Source: Nitrosopumilus sp. (GTDB lineage: Archaea; Thermoproteota; Nitrososphaeria; Nitrososphaerales; Nitrosopumilaceae). From it: 64,000 nt of DNA. The notes beneath the pieces were generated by a model. The model was not told where the DNA came from. It worked only from the letters and a program-made list of their open reading frames with translations, and ran no database searches. A program made the translations under genes and the position numbers. This document shows, piece after piece, positions 3,153-25,451 of the stretch. Positions within the stretch are counted from its first letter, which is position 1. Each line of letters starts with the position of its first letter. The stretch lies in the NCBI GenBank assembly GCA_965207075.1, contig CBDBLO010000002.1:1920001-1984000 (forward strand). Direction: 5' to 3'.

Positions 3153-3169
3153 GCAGCATGTGCCCTCGT

Positions 3170-3182
3170 ATGCATAAAAGGC
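3170..3182 (-). promoter_or_regulatory. GCCTTTTATGCAT TATA-like promoter motif of AbrB copy A
   Basis: Same 13-mer, 17 nt before the start codon, at 21049-21061 and 25439-25451. Confidence 0.65.
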
Positions 3183-3192
3183 AAGAAGAAAG

Positions 3193-3342
3193 TGCACAAT
3201 ATGCCCAGACGCCTCATTTCACATGCATTTTATGCAGCCAGAGGATGCATGATATGCACTTTTCGGGTTTTGGGGCATGCAGAATATGCATGTAGGCAAT
3301 ACAGAATATGCATGTAGGCAATACAGAATATGCATGTAGGCA
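3193..3342. repeat. Phased TGCA-N5-TGCA array, including a 22-bp tandem repeat (CAGAATATGCATGTAGGCAATA, ~3 copies, 3280-3342)
   Basis: Units start at 3193, 3224, 3246, 3278, 3300 and 3322 (some with one degenerate half-site). Confidence 0.85.
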
Positions 3343-3384
3343 TGGTTCGGGCCGCCACCCACACCCGTCTACGAAGGGAATCTG

Positions 3385-3546
3385 ATTCGCATTTACTCAT
3401 AGACTAACAAAACGAACCAACTCGCACACACAATCCTGAAGATCACGGGGGCCGCCTGGCGGCGGCCCCCTCCCACCTCTTGTCAGGCCTGACGGCCTGA
3501 CCACCCACAAAAAACATGGCCGGCCAACAGAGTCGGCGGCTTTCAT
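3385..3546. other. Conserved non-coding element with two hairpins (copy A)
   Basis: Reverse complement of ~20685-20844. Stems GGGGGCCGCC/GGCGGCCCCC (3447-3470) and GTCAGGCC/GGCCTGAC (3482-3501). Confidence 0.75.
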
Positions 3547-3687
3547 ATACGTACTAGTCACACGATCGGCCTTGATTTCTGAAATTATTAAGAAGACGTT
3601 CTTAGAACATAGCATCAGAAGCCTCTGGATCCTTTTGAATAGCCGTAGTGTTCAAAACAAATTATCATTATCAGTATGTTTTGAAGT

Positions 3688-4299
3688 CTAGGAGAATCTG
3701 GTCTGGATAGGTTTTTTCTTTGCTGGTCTGTATTTCTGGCGTAGCTCTTTAGCATCGCACACCGCCTGCGCAAGCATCTTCCTGTAGTTGTTATATCCCG
3801 GAAGATTCCCATCAATGCCCATCTTGTTTAGCTTTTCTAGCTCCTGTTCAAAGATCCCATAACGCTTCAACGTTTTGTGTTTTCTAAGAAGTCTTCCATA
3901 ATAATAGTACGGAACTTTATCGATTACTTGTTTCTCTTCTAGATATTTACCAAAAGCCATTACCTCATTAGGATAGCTTATTCCTGTATCTCTCTTTATC
4001 GCAGTTGAATAGTTGGTTACAAAGAAGTCATCCTCAGTCGTGTTATTGAATACATACAATACTCTTCCTATCTTCCACCACATAGTTGAAGTCATCCTAG
4101 AGTATTGCTTTGGAGTATTTTGAGCCTTTACGCGCTTGATCTTCTTAATTGTCTGGATGTACTGTCCGTTAAATTCTAATAGCTTTTCATGAGTATCTTC
4201 TCGGACCTTGAAATAATACATACTGTTTAGGCCCATCGTGATGTTTTCGAATCCTTCGCTGTCCTTTATCAGCGCTATTTTGACAGGTATCTTGTTCAT
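3688..4299 (-). CDS. Hypothetical basic protein, coupled to the MORC-like ATPase
   Basis: 203-aa AT-rich ORF with a 4-bp overlap with the upstream gene. WWKIGRVL loosely recalls DUF1016 N-termini. Confidence 0.65.
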   Translation of the reverse strand: MNKIPVKIALIKDSEGFENITMGLNSMYYFKVREDTHEKLLEFNGQYIQTIKKIKRVKAQNTPKQYSRMTSTMWWKIGRVLYVFNNTTEDDFFVTNYSTAIKRDTGISYPNEVMAFGKYLEEKQVIDKVPYYYYGRLLRKHKTLKRYGIFEQELEKLNKMGIDGNLPGYNNYRKMLAQAVCDAKELRQKYRPAKKKPIQTRFS

Positions 4300-5852
4300 T
4301 CCAACATCTGATTTAGTATGGCTCTGGAGAAATTCAGGGCTTTTTCAGCGGTTATAGTTTCATCATTTTTAGCGCCGTATGATACAACAGCACTTGCAAT
4401 AACTCTAGCCTTGTGGTAATTGTAAACGGGGCTTGCCTCCTTGTATTTCTGATTAAGTGGATGAGCAGTGTTATAGACAATCGCCATTTCCGGAGTTTCT
4501 TGCACCCAGCATTCCTCGGCACTGTGAGGATCATTCAAATCGAAAATATCAATACCGCCGCTTCGTCTTCTCTTAATTTTGGCCTTCAACGGCGCATCGT
4601 TATCGTCGTCTTTTAAGACACCTTCCTCGTGTTTTGCATCTTTGGAATTTTCATCATTAACACTCCAATCATCGACATCAACGCTCGTCCTGTCTATTGG
4701 GGGAGGATCTATAGTTGGAGATGATGGTGGATCAGCATCGGGATCCAAATCAGCATCTACATCTCCATCGGAGTTCAGCATGGGGATTCTCTGCTGGGCA
4801 ATCTTCATAAGCGGACCCAAAAATTTGTATTCTTTGTGCTTCAAAATCTCGTTTAGTCTTTCAGTGAGTCTAGAATCAATCGCCTGTTTTCTACGAGTGT
4901 TGTGTATATCACCTGATATCAGGTTCCGTTCTTTCAGAAAGTCATAAAAACACTGTTTGACTGTTTTAAGAACTTCATTTACCTTTGGCAATTTCTTAAA
5001 ATCTTCTTTGTTACTTGTAAGTTCGGCCGCCAAAACATTAACTTCGACGATTCCAAACACTTTGTTGTTCATACCATCCTTAATGTTGTCGGAAAAGCTG
5101 ACGACTTCATTTTTTATTCTCTTTCCAAATACCGAATATGTAAGATGAAGATACCCGTCGGGAGCAGGATCATCAGAAATGTAAAAGTAGCAGTAAATTT
5201 TGTGTGACTTGTACTTTACAGTTCTTTTAAATTTCTGCCCTTTTGGCTCCCATGCGTCTATTTTCCTGCCGTCTACGAATATCGACATTTGGTTTGTCAA
5301 GATTCTCTGACTGAACCAGAACTGGATTATGCTTATTATATACTCATATAAATTGTTTAGGATTAGTACCGGAAGCTTAACCCTGTATATGGTTCCTTTC
5401 GGTTGGTAGTAATGCGCAGGCAGTAGTTTTTTGACTTTCGGAGTTTTTAGACTTGTCTCATATTTGATGAGATGGCCTTTTTTATACATTCTCGAAACAA
5501 AGAAATTTTTTCCCTCACCTGTGATGGTAACTATCTCTTTGCCATAATCTGAACCCAAGAATATCTTTGCACCAACACCAGCAAAACCGATTGATCCTCC
5601 TTTCGACTTGCTTGACAACGATATTGTATGATAATTTTTAAAATCTCTCGGACTCATAGGAGCGCCATTGTTATGGATTTCTATAAAATTATTGTTTTCT
5701 TCCTTGTGAAAATTGATTTTTATTTTTGTAGCTCCTGCATCGATTCCATTAGCCACAGCCTCAAGTATCAGAACCTCTTCCTCATCAGAAGTATACATTC
5801 CTAAAAGATTTACAAGAGTCTGTTCAATGCGAATTGGCAAATCATCATCCAT
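4296..5852 (-). CDS. GHKL (MORC/HATPase_c_3-like) ATPase
   Basis: EAVANGIDAGA (N box), IHNNGAPM (G1) and IGFAGVGAK (G2). Confidence 0.8.
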   Translation of the reverse strand: MDDDLPIRIEQTLVNLLGMYTSDEEEVLILEAVANGIDAGATKIKINFHKEENNNFIEIHNNGAPMSPRDFKNYHTISLSSKSKGGSIGFAGVGAKIFLGSDYGKEIVTITGEGKNFFVSRMYKKGHLIKYETSLKTPKVKKLLPAHYYQPKGTIYRVKLPVLILNNLYEYIISIIQFWFSQRILTNQMSIFVDGRKIDAWEPKGQKFKRTVKYKSHKIYCYFYISDDPAPDGYLHLTYSVFGKRIKNEVVSFSDNIKDGMNNKVFGIVEVNVLAAELTSNKEDFKKLPKVNEVLKTVKQCFYDFLKERNLISGDIHNTRRKQAIDSRLTERLNEILKHKEYKFLGPLMKIAQQRIPMLNSDGDVDADLDPDADPPSSPTIDPPPIDRTSVDVDDWSVNDENSKDAKHEEGVLKDDDNDAPLKAKIKRRRSGGIDIFDLNDPHSAEECWVQETPEMAIVYNTAHPLNQKYKEASPVYNYHKARVIASAVVSYGAKNDETITAEKALNFSRAILNQMLE

Positions 5853-6207
5853 GTCGTAATTTCGGAGATGCGAGATTTAAGTATAGCTCATAACGTAATC
5901 TGGTACATAATTCTCCAATCTGACCCGATTGAAAGGCATTGTTTTGCAATGTATCACAAGCCACTCTACTGCCACACAAATTGGACAGGATGCGCTACAG
6001 TGCTTCCAAATCATCGTGTTAATGAATGTACAATTCACCTACAGCAAGCCGGCCGCGCTTCCAAGTCTACGGATAACGGTAAGACTCGATACCTTGCATG
6101 TTTTGACACCTTGCAGACATCAATACGCATTCCACAGTGATGGGAGTGACTTTTAGAAAGTTCTGCTTTTTGAAAAGAATAAAAACACTATATTCGATAG
6201 GTATGCA

Positions 6208-8553
6208 ATGAACCACATCAATACTGCCTTCCCAGAGGAAAAAAGACCCATGATGTACAAGATGATGAAGTGGTGGGGCGGGAAACCTCACAACATCTGG
6301 TCTGCATACATAGATCGCTATTCAGACCAAGGAGATATAATTCTTGATCCATTCTGCGGTCGTGGAGTAGGCATAATCGAATCCGTGAGGCTCGGAAGAA
6401 AAGCCATAGGAGTAGATCTAAACCCAATCGCAATTTTTCAAACACAGATGATTTCCATGGACATAGACACAAGAAAAATCAAAGACATGTGGCAATCCAT
6501 CAAGAAGGATCTGAGAGATCTTGAAGAGTCATCCGGCCTGTTCAAAACCAAATGCATTCAGTGTCATAAATACGCACGGCTTGGCACTATGAACCGAGAG
6601 AACGGCATTCCATACAAGATATTCTATCAATGTACATGCAATAAAAAACCATTGGGCAAAGAACCCACATCCAATGATCTTGAACTTTGTACAAAATCTG
6701 ACGATATTGACATAAAATGGCCCTATCCTAATAACAAATTTCCACAATCAGAATCCTTCAGCATGGCAGTGAATAATTTTGGCGAATCGTATGACAAGTT
6801 GTATACTCGGAGAAACCTATATGCACTGGCAGGTATCTTTGACAGGATCAACCGTATAGAACCAAAAGAGATGAGGTTTATGTTCCAATTCGCATTTGTC
6901 TCAATGGTGCATCTGGCAACAAAGATCCCAAGTGTTAGGGAGAATTCAGACCGAGTGATGTCTGGAAGCTGGGGGAGACCAGGTTTCCTCAAGGTGAGAA
7001 AGAACATGGAAATGAACCCGTTTATTCTGTTTGAAAGAGCAGTGGAAAAAAACCAAGGCATACTAAAGGGAAAGGCAAGTTCTGCAGAGCGACTACAGCG
7101 CAAGATAAAACCCGCGAGAGACGTCCAAGAATTGTTAGATGGCGAGAAAAATATGCTCCTTTTAAAACACAACACTGCTGAACTGTGCGATGTCATACCT
7201 GAAAACAGTGTGGATTATGTAATCACGGATCCGCCCTATGGGGGCTTGATACAGTACTTTGACCTCAGCTCTATATGGAGTGTGTGGCTAAGGCTCACGG
7301 ATCCTTCTTTTGAGATGATGTTTGAGGACGAGATTACAATAGATGCCAAAAAGGCCAAACCATTTACTGAATATCACAGGATGCTGTCACTGGCATTTGG
7401 GCAGATCTATAAAATTCTCAAACCCGAGAAATACATGACTGTCACGTTCCACAATGATAAACCCATTATATTCAACTCGATCTTGAGAGCATGTCAAGAT
7501 CAGGGTTTTGTTCTTGAAAAGATACTCTTTCAGATGAACCGTAGAGCCGGAGAGACCGGGGCGTCCTCACCCTGGGGCACGTCGGTCAGTGATTTCTACA
7601 TCCGTTTCTTCAAGCCTAAAGAAAGACCCAGTGTACTGTCTCAATACATTTCCACCAAATTTGAAAATATCGTGAAAAATGAAGCCAAGAAAGTAATTGC
7701 TGAAAGAGGAGAGCCGACAGAAATTTCAGCCATGATTCCTCACATATACACCGAGATGGGCAAATCTGGAATGCAAATTGACTTTACGGGTGATGACCAA
7801 ATCTCCACCATCTTGCATGGAGACGGGGATTTTGTTGAGATGGTGAAAAACCAGTGGTGGTTGTCCGACGGTGCTCAGACGCAGCACAAGTTGCAAACTC
7901 CCCTATCCGAAAGGGTTGAAACATCCGTAATATCTATTCTACAGTCGCGGTACAAAGTATCTTATGATGAGGTTCTGCAGTCTCTGTTTGAGAAATTCCC
8001 GAATTCTCTTACGCCAAACACCGAAAATATAAAAGAATATCTGCAACAATACGCAGGCAAGACTTCAGATGGTAAATGGAAGATAAACCCCAACATGGGC
8101 AAGGAGGAGGTTACCCGTGAGCACACCGAGCTGGAGAAAATCCTATGTAAACTAGGAGTACAATTTGGCTATAAGGTGTGGTCACCGGACCATGCAAAAG
8201 ATCAGGAAATGAAAGAGATATGCGAGGATTTTGACCTAGACGTTCCAAATGCGGACCGGGTCAAGAACATAGATGTGTTGTGGATAAAAGATGGTATTGT
8301 AAAGTATGCATTCGAAGTTGAGAATTCCACGAGTATAACTTCTGCTCTTGAAAGGTGTTCAAACATCAAAGATGTGACGGTGAAGAGAATAATGGTCGTA
8401 CCGCAGGAACGGAAGAATTTCCTTGAGAGGAAGAAGAAAGAGCCAATGTTCATAGACTACTTTACAAAGGACAACTGGAAAGTTATCTGGTATGACAAAC
8501 TTAAAAGCCACAGGTATGGAACAGAACAGGCGTTTTTGCAGCTTGTGCGTTAG
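6208..8553 (+). CDS. DNA amino-methyltransferase with C-terminal restriction-endonuclease-like domain
   Basis: DPFCGRG (motif I), TDPPY (motif IV), Cys cluster CIQC..CTC, and C-terminal IDVLW...FEVENS. Confidence 0.8.
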   Translation: MNHINTAFPEEKRPMMYKMMKWWGGKPHNIWSAYIDRYSDQGDIILDPFCGRGVGIIESVRLGRKAIGVDLNPIAIFQTQMISMDIDTRKIKDMWQSIKKDLRDLEESSGLFKTKCIQCHKYARLGTMNRENGIPYKIFYQCTCNKKPLGKEPTSNDLELCTKSDDIDIKWPYPNNKFPQSESFSMAVNNFGESYDKLYTRRNLYALAGIFDRINRIEPKEMRFMFQFAFVSMVHLATKIPSVRENSDRVMSGSWGRPGFLKVRKNMEMNPFILFERAVEKNQGILKGKASSAERLQRKIKPARDVQELLDGEKNMLLLKHNTAELCDVIPENSVDYVITDPPYGGLIQYFDLSSIWSVWLRLTDPSFEMMFEDEITIDAKKAKPFTEYHRMLSLAFGQIYKILKPEKYMTVTFHNDKPIIFNSILRACQDQGFVLEKILFQMNRRAGETGASSPWGTSVSDFYIRFFKPKERPSVLSQYISTKFENIVKNEAKKVIAERGEPTEISAMIPHIYTEMGKSGMQIDFTGDDQISTILHGDGDFVEMVKNQWWLSDGAQTQHKLQTPLSERVETSVISILQSRYKVSYDEVLQSLFEKFPNSLTPNTENIKEYLQQYAGKTSDGKWKINPNMGKEEVTREHTELEKILCKLGVQFGYKVWSPDHAKDQEMKEICEDFDLDVPNADRVKNIDVLWIKDGIVKYAFEVENSTSITSALERCSNIKDVTVKRIMVVPQERKNFLERKKKEPMFIDYFTKDNWKVIWYDKLKSHRYGTEQAFLQLVR

Positions 8554-9386
8554 ATCTTTCTAAAATTCAGTAAATATTGATGCACGTGGTTTATCTTGAA
8601 TGCGTATGGATACCCAAACGGATACAGCGGCTTGCTGTCCTGTACTAGAATAATGTTTCCTACGAACTCAAAACCTGTTTTTTGCATAAGGGTTATCATA
8701 TCACCGTGGGCATTGGTCTCTTTCTTGGCTACCGTAAAGTCGCTGATCACCACTGTACAATATTTCTTTTCATTAAGTTTTTTGTATAGCTCTGCCATTA
8801 TTTTCTCAATAGATTTTAAGTATGCCATGTATGTCTTCTTGTTGCCCACATCATTTGATTCATCCGAGTAGTATTCCACACCTTGTCTTCTCTGGCTTCC
8901 ATCGTGACGGATTCCACGACCTTTGTTTTTCAATATGTTGTGGTATGGAGGGGATGTAACGCAATAGTCAATGGCATCCAGCTTTCTAATCTCCTTTAAT
9001 GAATCTCCAGGGATTACAGAATACATGCGTCTTGGAATCTTGAGCTTACGAAGTCTTTTTCTAGCGAGAGTACAATATTGCTTGTTAAGTTCTATACCTG
9101 TACTGTGCCGGCCCGTCATAGCAGCAGCGATCATGCTTGTGCCACTACCCATGAAAATATCTAATACGTTGTCATTCTTTTTGGTAAACAGAAGGATTAG
9201 CCTCTTGATGTCTTCGACCAAAAATGGAGCGGGGTGTTCAAATGCATCCTTGTCTATGGCGTTTCTCTTGCTCATCCACACACTCTTGGACATTTGGAGC
9301 CATTCCTTACCCGTGAGATCGTTCAACGTGTTGCGTCCGTCGTAGATTCCTTTCTCACCCATGTCTGTTTTCAATACTGTTGCCAT
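8550..9386 (-). CDS. DNA methyltransferase, probably N4-cytosine
   Basis: HPAPF, DIFMGSGT (motif I) and TSPPY (motif IV). Confidence 0.85.
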   Translation of the reverse strand: MATVLKTDMGEKGIYDGRNTLNDLTGKEWLQMSKSVWMSKRNAIDKDAFEHPAPFLVEDIKRLILLFTKKNDNVLDIFMGSGTSMIAAAMTGRHSTGIELNKQYCTLARKRLRKLKIPRRMYSVIPGDSLKEIRKLDAIDYCVTSPPYHNILKNKGRGIRHDGSQRRQGVEYYSDESNDVGNKKTYMAYLKSIEKIMAELYKKLNEKKYCTVVISDFTVAKKETNAHGDMITLMQKTGFEFVGNIILVQDSKPLYPFGYPYAFKINHVHQYLLNFRKI

Positions 9387-9988
9387 GATACAATCACTTT
9401 GTTCGATTTCTTCATTATCAGAATGTCGGTTTTGGTTCTTTTTACGTTTTTCTTAAATCTGGCTTATATACCGTATCTGAGAATCATGTCACTTCGGATT
9501 CTATACACAACATGTACATGCTGTACCTGTTCGTATTGTCAGACATGCTAAAGGTACCAAATGGCATCTTACCGAGAAGGAACCTCTACACGTAAGCTCT
9601 GATATATGATGTCAATCAGTACAATGACCACAACGTCTTTCCAGCGAGAGCCATCGGTTTGAACAAGTAGTTTACAAACAAGATCTATGAAAGCAGTTTC
9701 TGAAATCAAAAAATTGGTAATAGATAGAAATACTCCTCACACTAGAGCAAAAGCACTTTAGTTGTTGTCTCTGCTGCCACCGGATGGCTTGCCGGGTTTC
9801 TTGCTAGGCCAGCCGCCGCCCCCACCTTTTTTAGCTTGTATCATATCATTACATCAACGTGCTTCTTATTATGTTGTGCCTATCCCGTATCTGAAGGTGC
9901 CACAAAATCCTTTTGAACAAGCATGTGATACAACCGAACATGTTGCAAAGTCATTGTGCAAAACAAGAACCACGGGAGTAACAACACT

Positions 9989-11686
9989 ATGTTTTTGGAA
10001 CGGATTGACATAGCTTGGTTCAGGGGGATTCGGCAATTGAGCATAAGGCTAGATCAGACTACCGTCTTGATCGGCGAGAACAACACCGGAAAGTCAACAA
10101 TCTTGGATGCCGTACAGCTAGCTTTGGGCGGTACTGCTACCAACGAAAGGATCAGGTTTACAAAATACGATCACTACCTTGCTGCAAGCGACAGTCACGC
10201 ATCAGATAGTGACCCAATTGAGATAGTCCTACATTTTTCTGAACAAATCGATAAAGAATGGCCGGATAACGTAATTCAGAAACTAGGTGACGTAATTCAA
10301 CAGGATGATATCACTGATCGGCATAGTGTGACACTGCGCGTGCGAAGCAAATACGATGCTACCACGGATGACTCCGTTCCAGAGTGGGATTTTCTGAACT
10401 TAAACAAAGAATCACTAGGTAAACACACGTTTCGCTACAAAAAAACATTACAGTCACTGGTTCCAGTCTTTTCCCTAAAGTCAAAACGCGATTCTGATCG
10501 TGCGTTCAAGCCAAACTCCACATTCTGGGGCCCATTTGTACGCGCAGTGTCGATGGATCCAGGCTTGCTGCAGAGTTTGGAGCACGAACTGGCCAGTCTT
10601 AACCAGAGAATCATCAAGGCCCACAAGTCTTTTTCCGCGGTCAAGGAATCTCTTCAAGATATTACCAAGCTGGTTCCACTTGCAAGTTCTGATCCTGTAA
10701 GCATAGCAGCGCTTCCAAGTAAAGTACTCGACATCTTGTCCCAAACGAGGGTGTCTCTTTCGTCGATTACCGGCGCGAAGATTCCGGTTGAAAAACATGG
10801 TGAGGGGACGCAAAGCTTAGCGACAATTTGCCTGTTTGTGGCGTTTCTCAAAAACAAGATTGATGGGCAAGACTCTGATCTTGTATCTGCTATTCTTACC
10901 CTTGAAGAACCAGAGGCGCATCTTCATCCTTCTGCAATCCACTCTGTCACCAACTTGCTTGAAAGCCAGTATGGGCAGAACATAATCGCTACTCACTCTG
11001 GTGATCTTGTCTCAAGTGTTGAAATATCTGCTCTGCGGTGCCTTCGCCGCAAGGACGGAGAGGTTGCTGTCTATCCGGTTGATAGGAATACCTTTAGTCC
11101 CAAAGACAGGAGCACAATTGACCACCACATCCGGATGGCTCGTGGAAATATGCTCTTCGCACGGTGCTGGTTGCTAGTGGAGGGAAAAACCGAGAGTCTA
11201 GTTTTTGAACGATGCGCTGCCATTTGTGGAATAGACCTAGCTCGTGAAGGAGTATACTGTGTCGAATATCCTCACATAAGCAGCCCTCGGACACTGATCA
11301 AGTTTGCCAAACAAATTGGGATCGAATGGTTCGTTGTTGCAGATGGTGATGATGCAGGCAACGGATACGTCCAAAGCGCAGAAGGTGAGCTCCACGGTGA
11401 GGACAAAGAGAAGCGCATATGCCAGCTGAAATACACTTTTGATGTCATGCTTTGCATGGAAGGCTACGGTCACCATTATGAGCGACACGTCTCCAGTGAC
11501 ACCGACAACCAAACATTCACAAAAGACGCGGCATACTGGAAGGCTGTAGTTGGCAAGAAAAGTCAGTTAAAAACTGCGGCGGCGTCCTCGGCTGTTGAAG
11601 AGATGTGTGAAACGGGCAAAGACAGTGTTCCAGAGATCATATCACGAATCATCACCACGTCGATTCAGCTTGCTAGAGGGGCGTAA
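9989..11686 (+). CDS. OLD-family ATP-dependent endonuclease (ABC ATPase + TOPRIM; GajA/YbjD-like)
   Basis: FRGI, GENNTGKS, HGEGTQS, LEEPEAHLHP, THS, LVEGKTE and DGD. ATG at 9989 is preferred over the GTG at 9956. Confidence 0.85.
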   Translation: MFLERIDIAWFRGIRQLSIRLDQTTVLIGENNTGKSTILDAVQLALGGTATNERIRFTKYDHYLAASDSHASDSDPIEIVLHFSEQIDKEWPDNVIQKLGDVIQQDDITDRHSVTLRVRSKYDATTDDSVPEWDFLNLNKESLGKHTFRYKKTLQSLVPVFSLKSKRDSDRAFKPNSTFWGPFVRAVSMDPGLLQSLEHELASLNQRIIKAHKSFSAVKESLQDITKLVPLASSDPVSIAALPSKVLDILSQTRVSLSSITGAKIPVEKHGEGTQSLATICLFVAFLKNKIDGQDSDLVSAILTLEEPEAHLHPSAIHSVTNLLESQYGQNIIATHSGDLVSSVEISALRCLRRKDGEVAVYPVDRNTFSPKDRSTIDHHIRMARGNMLFARCWLLVEGKTESLVFERCAAICGIDLAREGVYCVEYPHISSPRTLIKFAKQIGIEWFVVADGDDAGNGYVQSAEGELHGEDKEKRICQLKYTFDVMLCMEGYGHHYERHVSSDTDNQTFTKDAAYWKAVVGKKSQLKTAAASSAVEEMCETGKDSVPEIISRIITTSIQLARGA

Positions 11687-11689
11687 GTC

Positions 11690-13588: not shown

Positions 13589-13718
13589 GTGCCATTCTCC
13601 CTCATGCCACAATTCTCCGAATAGGAAAGCCATTCAAAGTTGGTAGTACTACCTTATGAATCAGGTGTCGTGTCTGGAAAGGAATGGATTTGACGCGATT
13701 ATGTAGAACGAACCATCT

Positions 13719-13922
13719 TCACATGTGGTATCGTGCCTGACTATAAGTATTGGGCATCGGGAGGAGGAGAGGGACAGGCACGCATCCAGTACATCGGAAG
13801 CTGCAAGAGATCGCTGTCCACGAGCCGCTTGCAAGAAACAGCACGGTGGCCTGCGGGCCGAACGTTTGAATGACCATACGAATCTTCTCGTCCGTACTCC
13901 ATCGGGTTTTCCTGCCTGTCAT
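13719..13922 (-). pseudogene. Transposase N-terminal (IS3 orfA-like HTH) remnant
   Basis: MTGRKTRWSTDEKIRMVIQTF resembles IS3-type OrfA starts; similarity ends after ~28 codons. Confidence 0.45.
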
Positions 13923-14123
13923 GCCCCCATGTGCTAAAGTGTGCATCGCTGATCAGTCCTATTCTAGCGGGGCCCCCACCAAGTGGTCTGCAAGCGCGGC
14001 CCTTGCCTGCCGCTCAAACTCTGCATAGGCCGTCATGCCTTGCCTGACGGGTATAGAGTTATCAGCGTTGTGGTTTCGGAACCGTCCAGTTCGTACATAT
14101 TTCACGAATTTACAACGGATCAT

Positions 14124-14489: not shown

Positions 14490-14647
14490 GTAGTTACAGC
14501 TTAATGCTCCTGTTGTATACCTTGCAGAAATATCCCTTCAACACAGTGAACTCAAGTATTACCCCGGAATTACGGATCGAAGCATTAATTAATAGTACTA
14601 CCGTACTATAACTAAGAGCTTAAAATTAGTACCGTATTGGGACGGTT

Positions 14648-14792
14648 CCCTTTAGACCCGCAATCATCCTTTGCGAGTCGATTTCAGCTCGAATTTTGCC
14701 CTCCGGATTCGTGCCTGTCAACATGCAGATTCGGGGCAAAGTGAGATTTAACCCTGCTGGTTGAGTTCGAGTTACTTCCAACTCAAACTCTC
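14648..14792. repeat. ~145-bp integrase-5'/att-like repeat, copy 1
   Basis: Aligns with 31765-31908 (CCCTTTAGACCCGC core; CAGATTCGGGGCAAAGTGAGATTTAACC; TGCTGGTTGAGTTCGAGTTACTT). Confidence 0.85.
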
Positions 14793-15023
14793 CAAAGCAC
14801 AGATTACCAGCGATACGAGCACCAAGCGTACGGAGCCACAATGCAGAACTCAGGGCCGTCGTAGGACCCGCAATCATAACAGGTAACCGTTTGACCCCCC
14901 ACCCACCCACTCCCCGAATCTAGATACAAGTTATGCCATACGTATCCGGATACAAGCAGAGCGATAAACGGTTACACCACATTCAACAGAGTATTTTTAA
15001 CAGTAGTGCAGATCTCGTGATCA

Positions 15024-18563: not shown

Positions 18564-18564
18564 T

Positions 18565-18673
18565 TTTGACTCGAACTTTAGCGTCCAAACTCGTGCCTGC
18601 CAACATGCAGGTTCAAGAGCAAATGGAGTTTAATCCTGCTGGTTGGGATCGAGATACTTCCGATTCGAACTCT
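18565..18673. repeat. Integrase-5'/att-like repeat, copy 2 (diverged, lacks core)
   Basis: TCGTGCCTGCCAACATGCAGGTTC...TTTAATCCTGCTGGTTG...TACTTCCGATTCGAACTCT matches copies 1 and 3. Confidence 0.7.
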
Positions 18674-18707
18674 GCAAGAAGTGGATTGAGACGTCAGATA
18701 CGCTAGC

Positions 18708-19805
18708 TATAGTGACGATCAAAAGTTTTTGCTGGGCAGAGACGTTCTATTGATGAATTTCATTGCATCGAGTTTGGGGCGCGCCGTCCTAAAATACTCT
18801 GACAAGGCACGGCGCATATGCACCACCGTCGAGTAATATTCGCTGACCAGCAGATCACGCTTTGACTGGTGCCAGTACTCCTCGACCACGCTGAGTTCCG
18901 GCGTCGCCTTGGGAAGCCATATGATCCTCGCGTTTGGCTCCCCCTCCAGGTATTCCCGTACGATTCTGGCCTTGTGCTGCGGCGCATTGTCCATGATTAC
19001 CGCGGTCCTGCCAAAGTGGCCGACCAGCGCCTTCAGGTACTTCAGGAACGTCTCCTTGTCGAATCCCTTGTACGTCCTGACAAACTGCCTGCCGTCCGTC
19101 GTGAGCGCGCCGTACGCCACTACCCTGTCGTGGCTTCCATTGTATGCGGTTATGACGGGGACGCCCCTCGGCGACCAGTATTTCACGCCGCTTCCCGGGT
19201 CGTTGATGAATATGGACTCGTCAACGACCGCGGTGACAAATCCCCGCGATTTCAGGTACGCGATCCGCCTTTTTGTGTCCCGCTGCCACTCCCTGATCTC
19301 CTCCATCTCCGCCCGGTTGACGTGCACCGCCTGGGACGTCTTGGCCGACATGCCGAGCCTGTGCATTATCTTCCTGACGTTTGTTATGTGGTACTCCACC
19401 CCGTGCCTTTCGCGTATGGCATTCTTGAGCACCCTTGGCGTCGTGATGCCGCCTCCTCCCGCAACGATCTTCCTGATCCTCTTCATCGCCACCTTTGGAG
19501 GCCTGCCCGAACGGGGCCTGTCCTTCAGGCCTGCAAGGCCGTCCTTGTCAAAGCGCCGAACCCAGCTGGAGACGGTGCGCGCGTCGCAGTAGCACAGCGA
19601 GGCGACCTCGGATGCCTTCAATCCGTTGATCTTGACCATGCAGACTGCGTGGATCCTATTTCCTATGAGGTGGTCTTTTTCTGCCTTGTAGGCCCGAATG
19701 AGCAGGTCCCTGTCTTTCTCATCCATGCCGGGCGATGTGTTCGGTGATCAAAAAAGGTTGCGCACACAGTTCTGACAGCCGCGAAGACTTTTGCGTCACA
19801 CTATA
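18708..19805 (-). mobile_element. IS630-family insertion sequence
   Basis: Imperfect terminal IRs CTATAGTGACGATCAAAAG / CTTTTGCGTCACACTATAG with TA ends, enclosing an intact transposase. Confidence 0.85.
18719..19726 (-). CDS. IS630-family DDE transposase
   Basis: HTH plus RPRSGRPPK; VVDES, IMDNAPQH and PELSVVEEYW. Confidence 0.92.
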   Translation of the reverse strand: MDEKDRDLLIRAYKAEKDHLIGNRIHAVCMVKINGLKASEVASLCYCDARTVSSWVRRFDKDGLAGLKDRPRSGRPPKVAMKRIRKIVAGGGGITTPRVLKNAIRERHGVEYHITNVRKIMHRLGMSAKTSQAVHVNRAEMEEIREWQRDTKRRIAYLKSRGFVTAVVDESIFINDPGSGVKYWSPRGVPVITAYNGSHDRVVAYGALTTDGRQFVRTYKGFDKETFLKYLKALVGHFGRTAVIMDNAPQHKARIVREYLEGEPNARIIWLPKATPELSVVEEYWHQSKRDLLVSEYYSTVVHMRRALSEYFRTARPKLDAMKFINRTSLPSKNF

Positions 19806-20265
19806 GACTACGACAGGATGAGGCTTGTGGGTGCCATGTTCATCACCCCGCCGTAAAATAGCAGGTCAAGTGACGGCCTTGACAGTCATACGTAACGTGT
19901 TGACGTCATCTCCCACACGCCGACACCTGAGACCCGTCCATGTCTCATGAGCAATGAAAAAGCTGGCGCGAAGAGCCCCAAGAACAGTTTCCATGTCCAG
20001 CGAACAATCGGCAATCCAGCCGTCCCGGGGCGAGGAAGCACAGGGCCAGGAACCGACAGATGACCGGTTCACACCAAAGAGATGCTTCGGATCATCCATA
20101 AAGCGTGAACTAAGAGAAGAAAGGATGGTGCCCGAGCGTATTCTCGATTTGCCCTTCTGAAGGGTACCGCGACTATGATGGGAAATTAGCCCGTCAAAGC
20201 ACTGCTGGGTTCTCTTCGCTTGGCGGGGGTGCTCTCCTGTGGGAAGGGCGTATTCGTGTACTCGC

Positions 20266-20289
20266 GGTTCAAATCCTACCCTCGGCGCC
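20266..20289 (+). other. tRNA 3'-end fragment (probable att direct repeat)
   Basis: GGTTCAAATCCTACCCTCGGCGCC reads as T-loop, 3' T-stem, acceptor strand and G discriminator; no tRNA 5' half upstream. Confidence 0.7.
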
Positions 20290-20684
20290 GCGTTCCACCA
20301 CCGGCTCTGATATTTTCCGAACCAGATCTGTCGTCACTCGATACATGACAGCCAAACCTCCTTGCCGATCCCATCATGACCCGGCCGGCCGTACGGTCTG
20401 GATCCTTGGGAGCGCACGGGTTGGCTCCGGACGAGACCCAAGGGAGCGCGGGTCGCTAGACTGAACACGCCGGATCGGACAATGCCCGCGTGAATGTCGT
20501 TGTTGCGCCCGTGAGTGGCCGGGGGGAGTGGGGAGAACGGGAGGCCGAAAAATCAGAGCCTCGTAGTTTTTCGCGCATGATCATGTGGATGTTGCCTATG
20601 CTGCCGGTTCCGATACCGTGGCCCCCAAAGGTCTTTCTGGATGCCGTCGCCAAGGCCAAGGCTCGTCGCGGAGGCCGATGCGGG

Positions 20685-20844
20685 ATGAAGCCTGTTGACC
20701 CCGTTGGCTTGGTGTGGTTTTTCGCGGGCAGTCGGGACGATAGCCCCGACTGTATGGTGGGAGGGGGCCGCCGCTAGGCGGCCCCCGTGATCTTCTGGGT
20801 TGTGTGTGAGTTGGTTCGTTTTGTTAGTCTATGAGCAAATGCGA
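20685..20844. other. Conserved non-coding element with two hairpins (copy B)
   Basis: GGGGGCCGCC-GCTA-GGCGGCCCCC (20763-20786) and CAGTCGGG/CCCGACTG (20729-20752); inverted match to 3385-3546. Confidence 0.75.
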
Positions 20845-20903: not shown

Positions 20904-21038
20904 TATGCATATGCCATATGCATATCATGCATTATAGACATGCATGTTATGCATGCCCGAAGACCTTGAAAGTGCATATCATGCATGCCACAGATGCATA
21001 TCATGCACGTAAGATTGGCGGGACATGCATATCATGCA
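20904..21038. repeat. Phased TGCA-N5-TGCA array (copy B)
   Basis: TGCATATCATGCA at 20919, 20973, 20995 and 21026; TGCATGTTATGCA at 20941. Confidence 0.88.
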
Positions 21039-21048
21039 CTTTTTTCTT

Positions 21049-21061
21049 GCCTTTTATGCAT
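21049..21061 (+). promoter_or_regulatory. GCCTTTTATGCAT promoter motif of AbrB copy B
   Basis: 17 nt upstream of ATG 21079. Confidence 0.65.
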
Positions 21062-21078
21062 ACGCGGGCCCATACTGC

Positions 21079-21426
21079 ATGGAACTGGAGGACATGCAGA
21101 GAAAGGTGCAGTTCCGGCAGGGCTCCTATATGGTGACCATCCCGCTCCAGATAGTCCACGCGCTTGGGATACGCAGGAACCAATACGTCCGGTTTGCCGT
21201 ATCAAAGAACAAGGTCATCATAAAGCCCGTCGAGGCGAGCATCACTAAGAAAGACGTGACGGAGGCAGACAGGGATTCTGCCGCGCTTGACAAGTACGAC
21301 GGGCCTCGGGCGGCGGATAACGAGGATGCCGGCTACATGGACGCTCTTGAAGAAGCCCTGTCTAAAAACAGGCCAGATGGCAACGGCGGCGCCAGCAGCC
21401 GCATGGAAAAGCTCAGGATGAGATGA
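21079..21426 (+). CDS. AbrB/MazE/SpoVT-fold DNA-binding protein (copy B)
   Basis: Paralogue of 2814..3152; same 14-bp convergent overlap with the ATPase. Confidence 0.85.
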   Translation: MELEDMQRKVQFRQGSYMVTIPLQIVHALGIRRNQYVRFAVSKNKVIIKPVEASITKKDVTEADRDSAALDKYDGPRAADNEDAGYMDALEEALSKNRPDGNGGASSRMEKLRMR

Positions 21427-24400
21427 CTATCACAAAGACTCTCTTTTTTTGCTCCTCGTCTAGCCGGGCCCTGATGTCCTTTATCCGGGGGCTCTTGGAC
21501 CAGACGTGGCACTCGGCAAAGCCCATCTTGGCCCACTTTGTCATGTTGTACCTGACGTGCTCCGGGTGGCTCTGGACCTCGCTTACGGACTCGATCTCCA
21601 CCGATATCGGGGCCTCCTTGTCGTAATCGTACGCGACCAGGTCGGTCCGGTCGGTGCCCTTTTTGATGCGCTGCGACGCCATGGCCACGAACAGGCCCTG
21701 CTTGAGGTACGCCGCAACCGCCTTTTGCGCCACCTCCTCAACGTCTGATGCCGTGCCCACCTCCGTGTGGTCAAACTCAAAGTATGCCTTCACCGCTTTT
21801 TTTGACAGGATATATGGCGACGTGCGCACCGTGCCTGCGCGCTCGACCAGTCCCCTGCCTTCCATGTCCCGGAGGGCGGAGGCCACCTCGTCGCGGTTCT
21901 GTACCTGCAGATGGTCTGCAAGCTGTCCCTGCTGCATGTCCTCGTTTTTTAGTAGGCGCATGATTCCCCACTCCAGCCTGGAGGGCAGCTCAACTGTTAT
22001 GCTCTCAAGCCACCTGCTCTTCTCGCGGGCCGCCTGCGCCATGGCGTTTGGGCCCACGACACCGGCGCCGTACTTGGCCAGCTGCGCCTTGACATACCTG
22101 TCGTATTCCGCGTCCGTGACTATCATGTCTGGGGGCCTGGCAAGCCAGAACTGGACGGGCGGGGGCTGCTCCTGCCCCGGTGGCGCTTTCTCGCGCATGG
22201 TCCAGTGGAAGTACTCCTGGCTTGAGAGCTGCTGCTGCAGCGCCTTTTGGAACTGTGGATCCCAGATCTGCGCGATGCGGGAGGCATCCTTGCCGTTGAC
22301 CCTGCCCACCATCTGCGTGCCCGAGTTGCCCGTGATGAGCCCCAGCTGCTTGTCGCTGATCTGCTCGGTGGTCTGGTGTGACAGCACGAGCCCCAGCCCC
22401 AGAGACCTTGCCTGCTCGAGCATCAGCTGCAGCACCTGCAGATCCTTTACAATCTGGAACTCGTCGAGCGCGAGCACCACCTGCGTGCGCTCCGACTCGT
22501 CGGGCGTGCGGTTGGCGCGCTCCTGTATGGTGAACCACAGCTTCAGTATGAACGCCTGCATCGCCAGCGGCTGCACGTGGTGGGGAAGGTTCAGCGGCGA
22601 TATCCTGACAACGGTCTGGCGCCCCGGCTTGATCAGCTCGGCAAAATCCACCGTGCCCTGTCTTACCGAGAACATGCGCCGGAGTACGGGATCGGTTGCA
22701 AACTGCTCTATGCGGTTGAGCAGCGGCATGAACGCGTCGCCCTTGAGGGTGGCGATGCTGTCGAGCGCCTGCCTCATCTCGGGCTCTGGGGTGCCGTACG
22801 CCTGTATGATCTCGGGCATGGCCTGCTGCCCGCTGTCCTGGAGCCTGAGTATGATGTGGTGTATGTCAAGGAACGTGGGCGCGTCGTGCCTTACGTATAT
22901 GTAAAACAAGAGGGCGCGGAAGATGCGCTCCATCTGCACGTAGCTTGCAGACTGCTGGTACCACTCCTCTATCGTCTTCATGAAGTATCCGACGTGCCTG
23001 GACACGACCTCCTCGCGCTCCCACGGCGAGTGCGCGGGCAGCTCCAGCGGGTTTATCGAAAACTTGGTCTGCTGCGGGTCCAGAAAGTGGACGCGCCCCC
23101 CGGACACGGAGCCGGCGCCGCACTGCCTGACGAACTTGTGGGAGTCGTCCCCCTTCGGATCCACGTATATGAACGCGTTGCACGCGGTCCCGTTCTCATT
23201 CCACGCCTCCAGGTGCTTTGCGATGACCCTGATCAGCGAGGTCTTGCCGGAGCCGGACGCGCCGACCGCATACACGTGGGTGGCGAAGTCCGCGGGCGAT
23301 ATCACCGCGGCGTCCGCGTCCTTGGAGGGAACCGCGGCGCCCCATGTCTCGCTCCAGTCAAATCCTGCCGGCTTGGGCCTGAAGAACCCCAGCGGCGCGC
23401 CCGCCTTTGCAGACGATTTCGAGGGGATTGTAACGCCTCTCGTGGCCTCTAGGTTCGGGATGTCCACCGGATCCGGCAGGTGCACGAGCAGCGGGATCTC
23501 CGGCAGGTTCAGTATGAGGAACGGCAGCGGCGGGCGGTCGCGGTACCCACCCAGCAGCCCCTTGTCAAAGTACCGTTTTAGCGCGGCGCCCAGCAATTTG
23601 TCGGGGTCCGGCAGCAGCCTGCGCCCGAACACGTCCATGCGCGGGCACCGCTCCTCGCTGTCAGTTATGCGGACCTCCACCCTCCTTGGCTTTTTCTCGT
23701 CCCAGAAATCCCGGTTCCTGTATGGAAACTTGGTCAGGTGCTCGTGCCCCGAGAACACGTTCTCCACCGGGAGGGACTCGATCTCGTCAAAGTTGAGGTT
23801 GATCTCGCGGTCTCCCCTTATGATGCCCCGGACGCTCATTATTACCTGGGCGGACTGCGTCTTGAGCGTGGCGTGCTTTTGGAGACCCGCGTAGTTGTTG
23901 GCAAAGTCGTACCCCAGCTCCGGGTGGTCGTGCGGCTTTTTGTCCGAAAGCGTGATGAGCTCGGCCGTGCTGAGGTAGTTGCCCCGCTTGATCTCAAGCG
24001 ATCTGGCGTCGAGGCGGCCCACGTGCCCGCGCAGAAAGGAGTCAAAGGAGTGGCGCCTGAACACGAACTGTATCCAGGCGCTCCTGGACAGCTGGGTCAG
24101 CCTTGCCACCCTGCTCATGAGGTGGTGCGCCCTGGCCCTGTCAAAGACGGTCGAGTAGTGCCCGTGGCGCGTGCCCACGTCGAATATCTGGCAGTCCGGC
24201 CCCGGCGGCCCGAACCAGTCCGGCTCGGTCTTCCCCATTGCGGAGAATGACGCGTTCGGGTACATGTTCAAGAACGCCTGCTTGTAGGCGTCCAGGTCGC
24301 CCTCCTCCGCCACCAGGACGAACTCCATCCTCTTCTCCACAGCATCCCACCACACCTCAAAGCTGCGGGTGCGGGTGCCGGCAAGGTCGCCTGCGGCCAG

Positions 24401-24547
24401 CACGGCCTTTTTTGCGTCCATCTCGATCGGTATCATGACCGAGCAGGCGGCCAGCCTGCCGGTCCCGGCCGCAAGGAAGTGTTTCGTGCGGTCCAGCTGC
24501 CCCTCGGGCTTTTTGCGGTTGGCCAGGCGCCAGCGTCTTGATCCCAT
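21413..24547 (-). CDS. HerA/TraD/VirB4-like ATPase with C-terminal wHTH and PD-(D/E)XK-like domain (copy B, full length)
   Basis: 1044 aa; GASGSGKT, DPKGD, LDEFQ, QARS, SHQ; RTDLVAYD...SVEIES. Confidence 0.88.
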   Translation of the reverse strand: MGSRRWRLANRKKPEGQLDRTKHFLAAGTGRLAACSVMIPIEMDAKKAVLAAGDLAGTRTRSFEVWWDAVEKRMEFVLVAEEGDLDAYKQAFLNMYPNASFSAMGKTEPDWFGPPGPDCQIFDVGTRHGHYSTVFDRARAHHLMSRVARLTQLSRSAWIQFVFRRHSFDSFLRGHVGRLDARSLEIKRGNYLSTAELITLSDKKPHDHPELGYDFANNYAGLQKHATLKTQSAQVIMSVRGIIRGDREINLNFDEIESLPVENVFSGHEHLTKFPYRNRDFWDEKKPRRVEVRITDSEERCPRMDVFGRRLLPDPDKLLGAALKRYFDKGLLGGYRDRPPLPFLILNLPEIPLLVHLPDPVDIPNLEATRGVTIPSKSSAKAGAPLGFFRPKPAGFDWSETWGAAVPSKDADAAVISPADFATHVYAVGASGSGKTSLIRVIAKHLEAWNENGTACNAFIYVDPKGDDSHKFVRQCGAGSVSGGRVHFLDPQQTKFSINPLELPAHSPWEREEVVSRHVGYFMKTIEEWYQQSASYVQMERIFRALLFYIYVRHDAPTFLDIHHIILRLQDSGQQAMPEIIQAYGTPEPEMRQALDSIATLKGDAFMPLLNRIEQFATDPVLRRMFSVRQGTVDFAELIKPGRQTVVRISPLNLPHHVQPLAMQAFILKLWFTIQERANRTPDESERTQVVLALDEFQIVKDLQVLQLMLEQARSLGLGLVLSHQTTEQISDKQLGLITGNSGTQMVGRVNGKDASRIAQIWDPQFQKALQQQLSSQEYFHWTMREKAPPGQEQPPPVQFWLARPPDMIVTDAEYDRYVKAQLAKYGAGVVGPNAMAQAAREKSRWLESITVELPSRLEWGIMRLLKNEDMQQGQLADHLQVQNRDEVASALRDMEGRGLVERAGTVRTSPYILSKKAVKAYFEFDHTEVGTASDVEEVAQKAVAAYLKQGLFVAMASQRIKKGTDRTDLVAYDYDKEAPISVEIESVSEVQSHPEHVRYNMTKWAKMGFAECHVWSKSPRIKDIRARLDEEQKKRVFVIVISS

Positions 24548-24584
24548 CAGCCGGTCACCTGTCCGTATTTCAGATGCATCGCAG

Positions 24585-25421
24585 TCACTCCACCAGCAGC
24601 TTGTAGAGGCCCGCTGCGTTGCTCATGACCGGGTCGGCCGGCACGCTGATCTTGAACCTCTTTTTGAGCCTCGACTCCAGCTCGTCGCGCACCCCCGGGA
24701 TGAGCAGCCCGCCGCCTGAAAGCACGACATCGTACGCGTGGCCGTACCCGGAGGACATGTCCGCTATCTCGTCTGCCAGGTTGCCTGCAAGCACCCTTGC
24801 GTATTTTTTGCACGTCTCCCTGCGCCGGTGCAGCAAGTCCTTGTCCAGATGCGCAAACTTGCCTATCTTGCGAGTTATGAATTCCGAGGCCCACCGGGAG
24901 CTCTCCCCGTCGATCACCTGGTTGTCCTCTATAACCACGATCTCGCTGGTTCCCTGCCCTATGGAGACCACCATGCCGGTGCTCCGGTCCATCTCGACCA
25001 GCGTCCCCACGGCCTGGGCCACCACGTCACACCGGTCCGCCGGGACGCACCTTTTGACCGTCTTGGATATGGCCTCGCGGCAGTCTGAGGCCTCGTACGG
25101 CAGGCCCACGGCCATCCTGGCCTTTTCATTGCAGTCCGCGGCGCGGCCTGCCGCGACGCGGATCCGGGACACTGCCTCCCGGATCAGCATCTCCACCTGC
25201 TTCTGGTACCTGGGATCGGGCCTCCCGCGTACGATGGGCCGCACGGTGGCCGCCCCTGCAGTATGCAGCATCTTGGTTGCCCTCTCGCCTATGGCCTCGG
25301 AATCCGCGTCGGCCCAGTCCCCGTGCGTCCTCTTGACGTACAGCGACGGGAACACAACGGAGCCGTGGTCTGAGACGCACTTTACAAAGCCGGTCCCGAT
25401 GTCAAGCCCTATCCTTAGCAC
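24585..25421 (-). CDS. ParM/StbA-like actin-fold ATPase
   Basis: Phosphate-1 IGLDIGTGFVK, connect-1 VVAQAVG, phosphate-2 SIGQGTSE, adenosine SGGG and connect-2 PVMSNAAG. GTG start at 25421 inferred from promoter spacing. Confidence 0.85.
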   Translation of the reverse strand: MLRIGLDIGTGFVKCVSDHGSVVFPSLYVKRTHGDWADADSEAIGERATKMLHTAGAATVRPIVRGRPDPRYQKQVEMLIREAVSRIRVAAGRAADCNEKARMAVGLPYEASDCREAISKTVKRCVPADRCDVVAQAVGTLVEMDRSTGMVVSIGQGTSEIVVIEDNQVIDGESSRWASEFITRKIGKFAHLDKDLLHRRRETCKKYARVLAGNLADEIADMSSGYGHAYDVVLSGGGLLIPGVRDELESRLKKRFKISVPADPVMSNAAGLYKLLVE

Positions 25422-25438
25422 GCCGTCAGACACGCGGG

Positions 25439-25451
25439 ATGCATAAAAGGC
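25439..25451 (-). promoter_or_regulatory. GCCTTTTATGCAT promoter motif of the actin-ATPase operon
   Basis: 17 nt upstream of GTG 25421, the same spacing as in both AbrB promoters. Confidence 0.65.

Follow-up and report, generated by a model that had tools for sequence, protein, structure and literature searches.

A probable leaderless core promoter at both ends of a Nitrosopumilus actin-ATPase-AbrB cassette, and a possible actin-based segregation role for the cassette

The 64,000-nucleotide stretch of Nitrosopumilus DNA analyzed here, called the window at its full length (C2:1920001-1984000, where C2 is contig CBDBLO010000002.1 of a genome of 2,231,187 bases and 60% GC), carries two copies of a 4.7-kb cassette, M1 (window -1223 to 3477) and M2 (25460 to 20756), which are inverted relative to each other and 86% identical. 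In each copy a promoter is followed by genes for an actin-like ATPase and an FtsK/VirD4-like ATPase, and then by a convergent abrB gene with its own promoter and an iteron array. Our subject is the 13-mer GCCTTTTATGCAT, which a first-pass annotation had noticed before the starts of both abrB genes and of the actin gene, and what this motif and its surroundings suggest about the regulation and function of the cassette. The features of the two copies are listed below.

25439..25451, minus strand: 13-mer core promoter of the probable actin-ATPase operon of M2, made up of GC, the TATA box CTTTTAT and a solitary ATGCAT, with the A-rich B recognition element (BRE) GAAAAATCC upstream
24585..25421, minus strand: actin-like ATPase of M2, 278 aa, probable leaderless GTG start (Pfam, structure model, Foldseek, start alignment)
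21413..24547, minus strand: FtsK/VirD4-superfamily P-loop ATPase of M2, a soluble protein of 1044 aa that carries a MarR-like winged helix near its C terminus (Pfam)
21079..21426, plus strand: AbrB/SpoVT/MazE-fold DNA-binding protein of M2, 115 aa, ending in the conserved tail SR(M/L)EKLR(M/L)(K/R) (Pfam, profile search, family alignment)
21049..21061, plus strand: 13-mer core promoter of abrB in M2, its TGCA at -22 in register with the array
20906..21079, plus strand: iteron array of M2, whose 13 TGCA cores occupy -173 to -3, lie 9, 13, 22/23 or 19 bp apart and mostly pair as ATGCATATCATGCA(T/C) palindromes
3170..3182, minus strand: 13-mer core promoter of abrB in M1, paralogue of the M2 copy
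3153..3342, minus strand: iteron array of M1, its TGCA cores spanning -182 to -3, with a 22-bp unit repeated 2.9 times at 3280-3342
2814..3152, minus strand: AbrB of M1, a 112-aa paralogue that shares 74% identity with the M2 copy
2..2827, plus strand: FtsK/VirD4-like ATPase of M1, incomplete here because the gene starts upstream of the window
C2:1918816-1919649, just upstream of the window: actin gene of M1, with GCCTTATATGCAT as its promoter

Because the ATPase gene of M2 begins 37 nt past the actin stop codon, the two genes are probably one operon; abrB converges on the ATPase gene with a 14-nt overlap. Homology between M1 and M2 starts 9 nt upstream of GCCTTTTATGCAT on the actin side, and on the abrB side it runs ~300 bp past the motif, through the array. 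The genome holds four actin cassettes in total, the other two being M3 (actin at C2:1782964) and M4 (actin at C2:711237). It also contains a VirD4-like gene without an actin at C2:1147420 and a solitary abrB at C2:2063469, which has an array of its own and neither an actin nor an ATPase gene. At the locus of this solitary gene (C2:2063167-2063469; L097:8164-8913) the array consists of ~6 copies of a ~33-bp unit, and the neighbors are a DprA-like gene, a PLD-SNF2 helicase and an Eco57I-type methylase.

Together with these four cassettes we examined 77 related loci from Nitrosopumilaceae and other Nitrososphaerota records, among them the metagenome-assembled genome (MAG) 'Thaumarchaeota RHO2_bin_25', a Cenarchaeum MAG, and Nitrosopumilus, Nitrosotalea and Nitrosotenuis MAGs. 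The complete order of actin, ATPase and convergent abrB is present in 19 of them, while at 8 more distant loci an AbrB-like open reading frame (ORF) is directly convergent to the actin gene, the ATPase not lying between. Five abrB genes of the window's type (L110-L114, from genomes G377 and G405) have no actin gene at their locus and adjoin a small ORF whose homology is to the last 100-160 aa of the large ATPase. They stand back to back with a second, different abrB that has its own GC-rich array. A scan of metagenomes contributed one usable extra cassette only (L115), and a viral origin was set aside after no relatives were found in IMG/VR. The literature searched held no description of such a cassette or of an AbrB-type adaptor paired with an archaeal actin, and a survey of thaumarchaeal mobile elements gave 0 occurrences of actin, ParM or AbrB in a search by term (PMC6563490).

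The actin-like protein scores 48.3 bits against the Pfam family MreB_Mbl (cutoff 27) and 20.7 bits against ALP_N, under the 26.3 cutoff, so that it is not assigned to the ParM/Alp sequence family. Its structure model has a predicted local distance difference test (pLDDT) score of 92.9. Foldseek places this model about equally close to MreB, MamK and actin (probability 1.0, template modeling score 0.6-0.78, 15-19% identity), with no ParM among the 50 matches listed, and in a profile search of the PDB the only ParM chain was 3js6 (E 1.2e-4), ranked behind Arp2 and MreB. Judged by model and profile, the protein is an actin-fold NTPase, one of the parts expected of a ParMRC-type system.

The 1044-aa ATPase matches TrwB_AAD_bind at 27.2 bits and, over residues 857-904, MarR_2. 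It is not a classical coupling protein and has no membrane segment (no 19-residue window exceeds a mean hydropathy of 1.6), no match in the PDB by sequence and no type IV secretion neighbors, VirB4 included, in Pfam scans of the window and its flanks; against the NCBIfam VirD4-like model it reaches 23.6 bits, the cutoff being 250. We also considered the trio as a defense system and set this reading aside, as PADLOC returned a P-loop-level match only for the ATPase (mad8, 7.5e-15) and nothing for the actin or AbrB.

The AbrB protein of M2 scores 20.5 bits on PF04014, under the 24.7 cutoff, its paralogues score 30.4 and 33.8 bits, and the family profile matches 7d2n (2.9e-5) and MazE 1ub4 (3e-4); on these profile matches it is assigned an AbrB/SpoVT/MazE swapped-hairpin domain. 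In the family alignment this N-terminal domain is followed by an acidic linker that varies and by a C-terminal tail that hardly does, S(R/K)LE(K/R)LR(M/L)K, conserved in 19/19 sequences. A toxin-antitoxin reading of AbrB was discarded: there is no toxin-like neighbor, and in length the arrays far exceed a single operator.

A complex predicted from the actin alignment together with residues 66-115 of AbrB scored 0.81 (runs 0.79, 0.83 and 0.81), against 0.01 for the best control; the 0.81 mark is reached by 116 of 157 solved complexes and by 2 of 215 mismatched pairs. The runs share at least 90% of their contacts, with a pLDDT of 51 for the AbrB partner and 92-93 for the other chain. Predicted contacts join AbrB 108-115 to actin 104-115, 132-142, 164-169 and 275-278, segments that we take to correspond to the cleft between the two halves of actin where the ParR tail binds ParM. 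The C-terminal tail of AbrB is thus predicted to dock on actin. Because the cassette order recurs among the relatives and the tail is predicted to dock in this way, a partnership of actin and AbrB is well supported, and the functional link between the two proteins that the first-pass annotation had drawn from the motif finds its backing in conserved synteny and in the predicted tail-to-cleft complex.

We then turn to the motif itself. GCCTTTTATGCAT is found exactly at 3170-3182 (-), 21049-21061 (+) and 25439-25451 (-), and from each copy it is 17 nt to the start codon (ATG 3152 on the minus strand, ATG 21079 on the plus strand and GTG 25421 on the minus strand), just as originally described. 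With at most 2 mismatches the window holds 8 matches where 1.13 are expected, a number reached in 0 of 100 shuffles. The three exact copies are the only ones in the whole genome, and all lie in the window; 4 more copies differ at one position, including GCCTTATATGCAT at C2:1918786 (window -1214), which lies 17 nt 5' of the GTG of the second actin paralogue. Chance as a source of the copies is rejected by the shuffle test and the genome-wide count. The two abrB copies are nevertheless paralogous rather than independent, because both lie in the 86%-identical inverted duplication, and the sole independent coincidence is that of the abrB promoter with the actin promoter. A link to restriction-modification was also dropped, since ATGCAT is not avoided in the genome (368 sites, against ~320 expected by our own estimate from base composition).

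In archaeal leaderless promoters, transcription begins at the start codon itself and a TATA-like box lies ~24-30 nt farther upstream; for Nitrosopumilus, the literature searched offered nothing usable on such promoters, and among public sequencing runs none recorded as RNA was listed with the locus. In the host genome, the start codons of ORFs of 100 aa or longer are most frequent 28-31 nt after CTTWWA (47, 36, 41 and 32 starts, against a background of 2-27), and 24 of the 59 CCTT[AT]TAT sites have a start 25-32 nt downstream, the mode of 29 being the spacing of the 13-mer. At that spacing CCTTTTAT precedes unrelated host genes, including those for pilin-like and small Cys-rich proteins. The same geometry recurs in the family: with starts picked within 10 codons of the homology-projected N terminus and a TATA-bearing start preferred, 38/38 promoters of the 19 cassettes carry a TATA-like hexamer 26-29 nt ahead of the start (CTTWWR in 37, TTTAAA in 1), and 15 of the 19 projected actin starts were already start codons before any such choice. 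The motif can therefore be read, as first proposed, as a TATA-type core promoter of leaderless genes. Since the host-wide peak and all 38 cassette promoters agree in this geometry, CCTTTTAT, which makes up 8 of the 13 bases, and the 17-nt spacing are generic to the lineage, and within the 13-mer only the G at the front and the GCAT at the back are specific. The concern that the motif is simply a common host promoter is accordingly upheld for CCTTTTAT and its spacing and rejected for the full 13-mer, which is not common. A second concern, that the actin is translated from another start, is not borne out: at the aligned position the 19 cassettes have 12 ATG and 7 GTG, 18 homologues begin in line with GTG 25421, and leaderless geometry and homologue alignment together support this GTG as the actin start.

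Outside the hexamer, host leaderless-type promoters hold almost no information. TGCAT follows the hexamer in 3 of 143, and these three are probably the cassette's own promoters. Within the family the consensus of the 19 actin promoters is A.AT.C.C-CTTAAA-T.CA.CC.G and that of the 19 abrB promoters.TT....C-CTTAAA-TG.A..CG.G. Both classes share the core (G/C)C-CTTWWA-TG(C/G)A(T/A), of which the 13-mer is a near-perfect instance. The two classes part at BRE positions -8, -7 and -6, where A is found in 13, 11 and 13 of the 19 actin promoters and T in 8, 14 and 16 of the 19 abrB promoters.

At the abrB promoter the motif belongs to a larger pattern. The TGCA cores of M2 lie at -173, -160, -151, -138, -129, -106, -97, -84, -75, -53, -44, -22 and -3, with successive spacings of 13, 9, 13, 9, 23, 9, 13, 9, 22, 9, 22 and 19 bp, and M1, L017, L020, L018 and L019 show the same 9/13/22/31 TGCA lattice. 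In both M1 and M2 the TGCA of the 13-mer, at -22, falls 22 bp past the core at -44; in L018 a 22-bp step separates -62 from -40, and the promoter TGCA is at -21. The ATGCAT of the abrB promoter is the last, promoter-proximal and in-phase element of the TGCA iteron array. The 13-mer is exact in 7 of the 9 abrB copies of the window's type (M1, M2, L017, L020, L110, L111 and L112) and one base off in the other two (L113 and L114), and the 17-nt spacer to the start varies among abrB copies though the 13-mer is kept. ATACAT occurs as a variant within arrays, and in a check for CRISPR-like or other tandem arrays the only unit that Tandem Repeats Finder reported within them is the 22-bp unit at 3280-3342. 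Across the wider family an array directly borders the TATA box of every abrB, and its unit differs by lineage, examples being the 38-bp unit repeated ~8 times in M3 and the CCACGCGTGG-containing unit of M4. That the solitary abrB at C2:2063469 carries its own array shows that the arrays travel with abrB and not with the ATPase. Autoregulation of abrB by promoter occlusion is likely, because the 13-mer lies in array register and is exact in those 7 of 9 copies.

The actin promoter is simpler, with its A-rich BRE GAAAAATCC, one ATGCAT and no array; a second TGCA is found there only in L020, at -44. The five close copies read GCCTTTTATGCAT (M2), GCCTTATATGCAT (M1), GTCTTATATGCAT (L020), GCCTTTTATACAT (L017) and GCCTTATATACAT (L115). 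The earlier identification of ATGCAT as a half-site of the array stands at the abrB promoter; at the actin promoter the site is solitary. As a separate observation, the 14-mer AACCGATATTATAC directly follows the TATA region both in the L018 actin promoter and in the L019 abrB promoter, which are from different genomes; this sharing is a hint that the ends of such cassettes have exchanged promoter segments.

Our overall reading, to which we give a probability of about 0.55, is that a leaderless promoter stands at both ends of the cassette, that the abrB array serves autoregulation, and that the cassette provides a ParMRC-like segregation system with an AbrB-fold adaptor. In this scheme the 13-mer, consisting of GC, the TATA box CTTTTAT and the palindrome ATGCAT, would drive both convergent units, actin-ATPase and abrB. 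The TGCA array is most likely the binding array of the AbrB-fold protein, acting as operator and centromere-like site at once, and AbrB bound there would occlude the TATA box and the start site and so regulate its own gene. AbrB is built like a segregation adaptor, in which a flexible linker joins the DNA-binding domain to a conserved C-terminal peptide that is predicted to insert into what we read as the actin cleft, and the cassette would then work like ParMRC (type II) partition with the AbrB-fold adaptor replacing ParR. The lone ATGCAT at the actin promoter may give AbrB a weak handle by which to damp the actin-ATPase operon, which is the least supported step. The proposal in the first-pass annotation that AbrB co-regulates both units through the motif thus meets mixed evidence, with the ATGCAT copy at the actin promoter in its favor and the drift of the actin site, and its absence in L018 and L019, against it. 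We regard co-regulation of the actin operon as plausible, at best clade-specific and unproven, and on the comparative evidence we lean somewhat against it, because the actin site is solitary, drifts and is missing in sister clades with the same array type.

Several observations weigh against the reading as a whole or against its regulatory part. At every position the 13-mer has the commonest base of the family-wide consensus sC-CTTWWA-TGnAW or one nearly as common, so the two promoters can coincide without a shared operator. In the close clade the actin site is ATGCAT in 3/5 and ATACAT in 2/5 copies, and it is a lone site without an array. L018 and L019, which have the same AbrB segment QFRQGSY and TGCA arrays, carry TTAAA and TCCAT at that place in their actin promoters. 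M3, M4, L023 and L029 share one actin-promoter form, GCTTAAACGCAA, while the abrB arrays of M3/L029, M4 and L023 are of three kinds. Over 20 flanking positions in 18 cassettes, identity between the two promoters is 8.4/20 within and 7.6/20 between cassettes. Units of abrB and array also occur without an adjacent actin gene, and the predicted complex has only a model score behind it, which may partly reflect likeness to solved complexes of the ParM-ParR type.

Much of this would fit an account by consensus and common descent only, in which both promoters have stayed near the family core-promoter consensus since the cassette arose and the actin operon is not regulated by AbrB, which may still control itself. 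The flank identities just given point the same way, as do the centering of both 19-promoter consensuses on C-CTTAAA-T, the persistence of (C/T)GCA(A/T) at the actin promoter in clades with unrelated abrB arrays, the drift of the actin-promoter copies at 1-2 positions in 4 of the 5 close copies, twice in the TGCA core, and the many unrelated genes of the genome that CCTTTTAT drives at the same spacing. Common descent alone, however, leaves the family-wide TGnAW in need of a cause, given that TGCAT adjoins the hexamer in just 3/143 host leaderless-type promoters. Moreover, TGnAW coincides with an iteron core in six cassettes, and, given a shared CCTTTTAT, identity of the 5 remaining bases by chance has a probability of ~1 in 1000 by our own estimate from base composition. 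We treat this account as a serious competitor to the ParMRC-like reading, though one that we think will probably not suffice.

A different factor might instead read the TATA-adjacent element, either the winged helix of the ATPase or a host TFB/TBP paralogue, so that the element would mark a promoter class of mobile elements. The C-terminal MarR-like winged helix of the ATPase makes it a candidate, and a small ORF like the C-terminal region of the ATPase stays beside abrB where the ATPase and actin genes are missing. GTCTTTTATGCATCCCGCG once and CCCTTTTATACAT twice precede genes for small Cys-rich or pilin-like proteins in an island at C2:1146-1183 kb that has a VirD4-like gene and no abrB of the window's type. 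Thaumarchaeal conjugative elements identified in a survey of integrated elements are reported to encode TFIIB homologues (PMC6563490), which would suit such a factor. Pfam scans of the window and flanks, however, found no TFB gene, the arrays travel with abrB and not with the ATPase, as the solitary abrB and its array at C2:2063469 show, and the TGCA lattice would fit a small dimeric or tetrameric binder. We consider this explanation improbable.

The position of the 13-mers, inverted and at both ends of a cassette present in four copies with actin, also raises the possibility that they are inverted terminal repeats of a mobile 4.7-kb element, that is, recombination ends rather than regulatory sites; the start of M1/M2 homology 9 nt outside the motif on the actin side would agree with this. 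On the abrB side the homology continues ~300 bp past the motif and through the array, the two ends are not alike in other clades, and both motifs stand at the exact promoter distance from start codons. Pfam scans found no transposase or integrase belonging to the cassette, and none of the examined cassettes has homology ending precisely at both 13-mers with target-site duplications. These findings make terminal repeats very improbable indeed.

The ParMRC-like reading can be extended to a fuller picture, in which the cassette is an undescribed actin segregation system of the Nitrosopumilaceae: an AbrB-fold adaptor would link lineage-specific iteron centromeres to the 278-aa actin by way of its C-terminal peptide, the winged-helix ATPase would be a third component, feedback would act on both promoters via ATGCAT, and the multi-copy cassette, here an inverted pair around a Gabija/methylase defense island, might stabilize or move such islands or their excised forms. 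With all these parts combined, we consider the extended picture speculative and on balance unlikely.

The two inverted cassettes enclose an island whose features are as follows.

3478..20755, no strand: lower-GC cargo of 17.3 kb between the inverted cassettes, with genes for a HATPase protein, two DNA methyltransferases, Gabija GajA/GajB, an Ig/cupredoxin protein and a DDE transposase
15024-18563: Ig-like/transthyretin-like/cupredoxin protein, 1179 aa

The Gabija pair is matched at 3.4e-181 (GajA) and 5.7e-225 (GajB), and the inverted-repeat layout could allow inversion of this 17.3-kb defense island. The Ig-like/transthyretin-like/cupredoxin gene contains a perfect tandem repeat with a unit of 351 bp (3.0 copies, 100% matches, 17507-18556). 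Genes for McrBC lie just upstream of M1 (L094:15869-18684), and a 495-aa AAA_15/AAA_21 ATPase at 28506-29993 (-) matches PADLOC PD-T4-4_A at 4.6e-40, so that defense content reaches past M2. No integrase or tRNA borders were found in the window or in 20 kb upstream, and no known RNA family reached the gathering score in 1-30000. A hemA-like (glutamyl-tRNA reductase) gene of 361 aa that lacks the dimerization domain lies ~9 kb upstream of M1 (L094:8972-10057), and a second one, of the full 463 aa, lies ~4 kb from the M3 actin gene (L095:16803-18194); the two may represent duplication at an integration site. Elsewhere in the genome, GTCTTTTATGCATCCCGCG at C2:1182288 (+) shares 18 of 19 bases with the M2 actin promoter and stands 17 nt before a 60-aa Cys-rich ORF. 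In the surrounding island, C2:1146-1183 kb, there are also a VirD4-like gene of 1345 aa, pilin-like genes and several promoters of the GCCTTTTATGC type; the match may reflect a class of mobile-element promoters or a target in trans.

Actin-driven (type II) DNA segregation is a paradigm of bacterial plasmids, and archaeal segregation has been described mainly for ParA-type systems such as SegAB, pNOB8 and HpaAB. If our reading is true, a minimal actin, an AbrB-fold adaptor and phased iterons would amount to a new solution to DNA segregation, in archaea, and in a host group of environmental importance, the ammonia-oxidizing archaea, which include sponge symbionts. For annotation, the leaderless CCTT(W)(W)AT promoters of this lineage, 29 nt before starts, fix the starts of the actin and abrB genes, and the promoter result separates those bases of the 13-mer that carry information beyond an ordinary promoter.

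Set beside known promoters, those of the cassette resemble archaeal BRE/TATA leaderless promoters in the TATA-like hexamer 26-29 nt before the start codon, in the A-rich BRE of the actin promoter and in the pyrimidine-purine step at the presumed start (C|A, C|G). They differ in that abrB promoters carry a T-rich tract, the end of the last iteron, in the place of the BRE, and in the conserved TGnAW directly after the TATA box in both cassette classes, which host promoters lack. The large ATPase shares the FtsK/HerA/VirD4-superfamily P-loop domain with the VirD4/TraG coupling proteins, from which it differs in having no membrane anchor, no VirB4 or type IV secretion genes nearby and NCBIfam scores far below the cutoffs. 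FtsK-gamma and TraB have a C-terminal winged helix, and in this respect the ATPase is like the FtsK/TraB-type dsDNA translocases. Bacillus subtilis AbrB and the MazE antitoxins have sites in their own promoters and bind a protein partner through their C-terminal part. The cassette AbrB is like them in its N-terminal swapped-hairpin domain, in the candidate sites in its own promoter and in the predicted binding of a partner by its C-terminal part; it is unlike them in having no toxin gene beside it, in arrays of 5-8 or more phased repeats over 150-300 bp in place of a single operator, and in its predicted partner, an actin-like ATPase.

The closest parallel is to ParMRC of plasmid R1, pSK41 ParMR and AlfAB, in which an actin-fold ATPase acts with a small dimeric adaptor and iterons overlap the adaptor's promoter. 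The cassette likewise has an actin-fold ATPase and a small DNA-binding adaptor, an iteron array that overlaps the adaptor gene's own promoter and so would imply autoregulation, and an adaptor C-terminal peptide predicted to bind the actin cleft. An adjacent adaptor gene is present in the 19 cassettes and the 8 directly convergent loci, its product having an AbrB/MazE swapped-hairpin fold in contrast to the ribbon-helix-helix of ParR. Unlike its counterpart in ParMRC, this gene is convergent to the actin gene and not downstream in the same operon, with the array at the adaptor promoter ~4.4 kb from the actin promoter and a 1044-aa FtsK/VirD4-like ATPase between the actin and adaptor genes. Finally, the actin is minimal, at 278 aa, and no nearer to ParM than to MreB, MamK or actin, and the cassette as a whole is archaeal, chromosomal and present in multiple copies.

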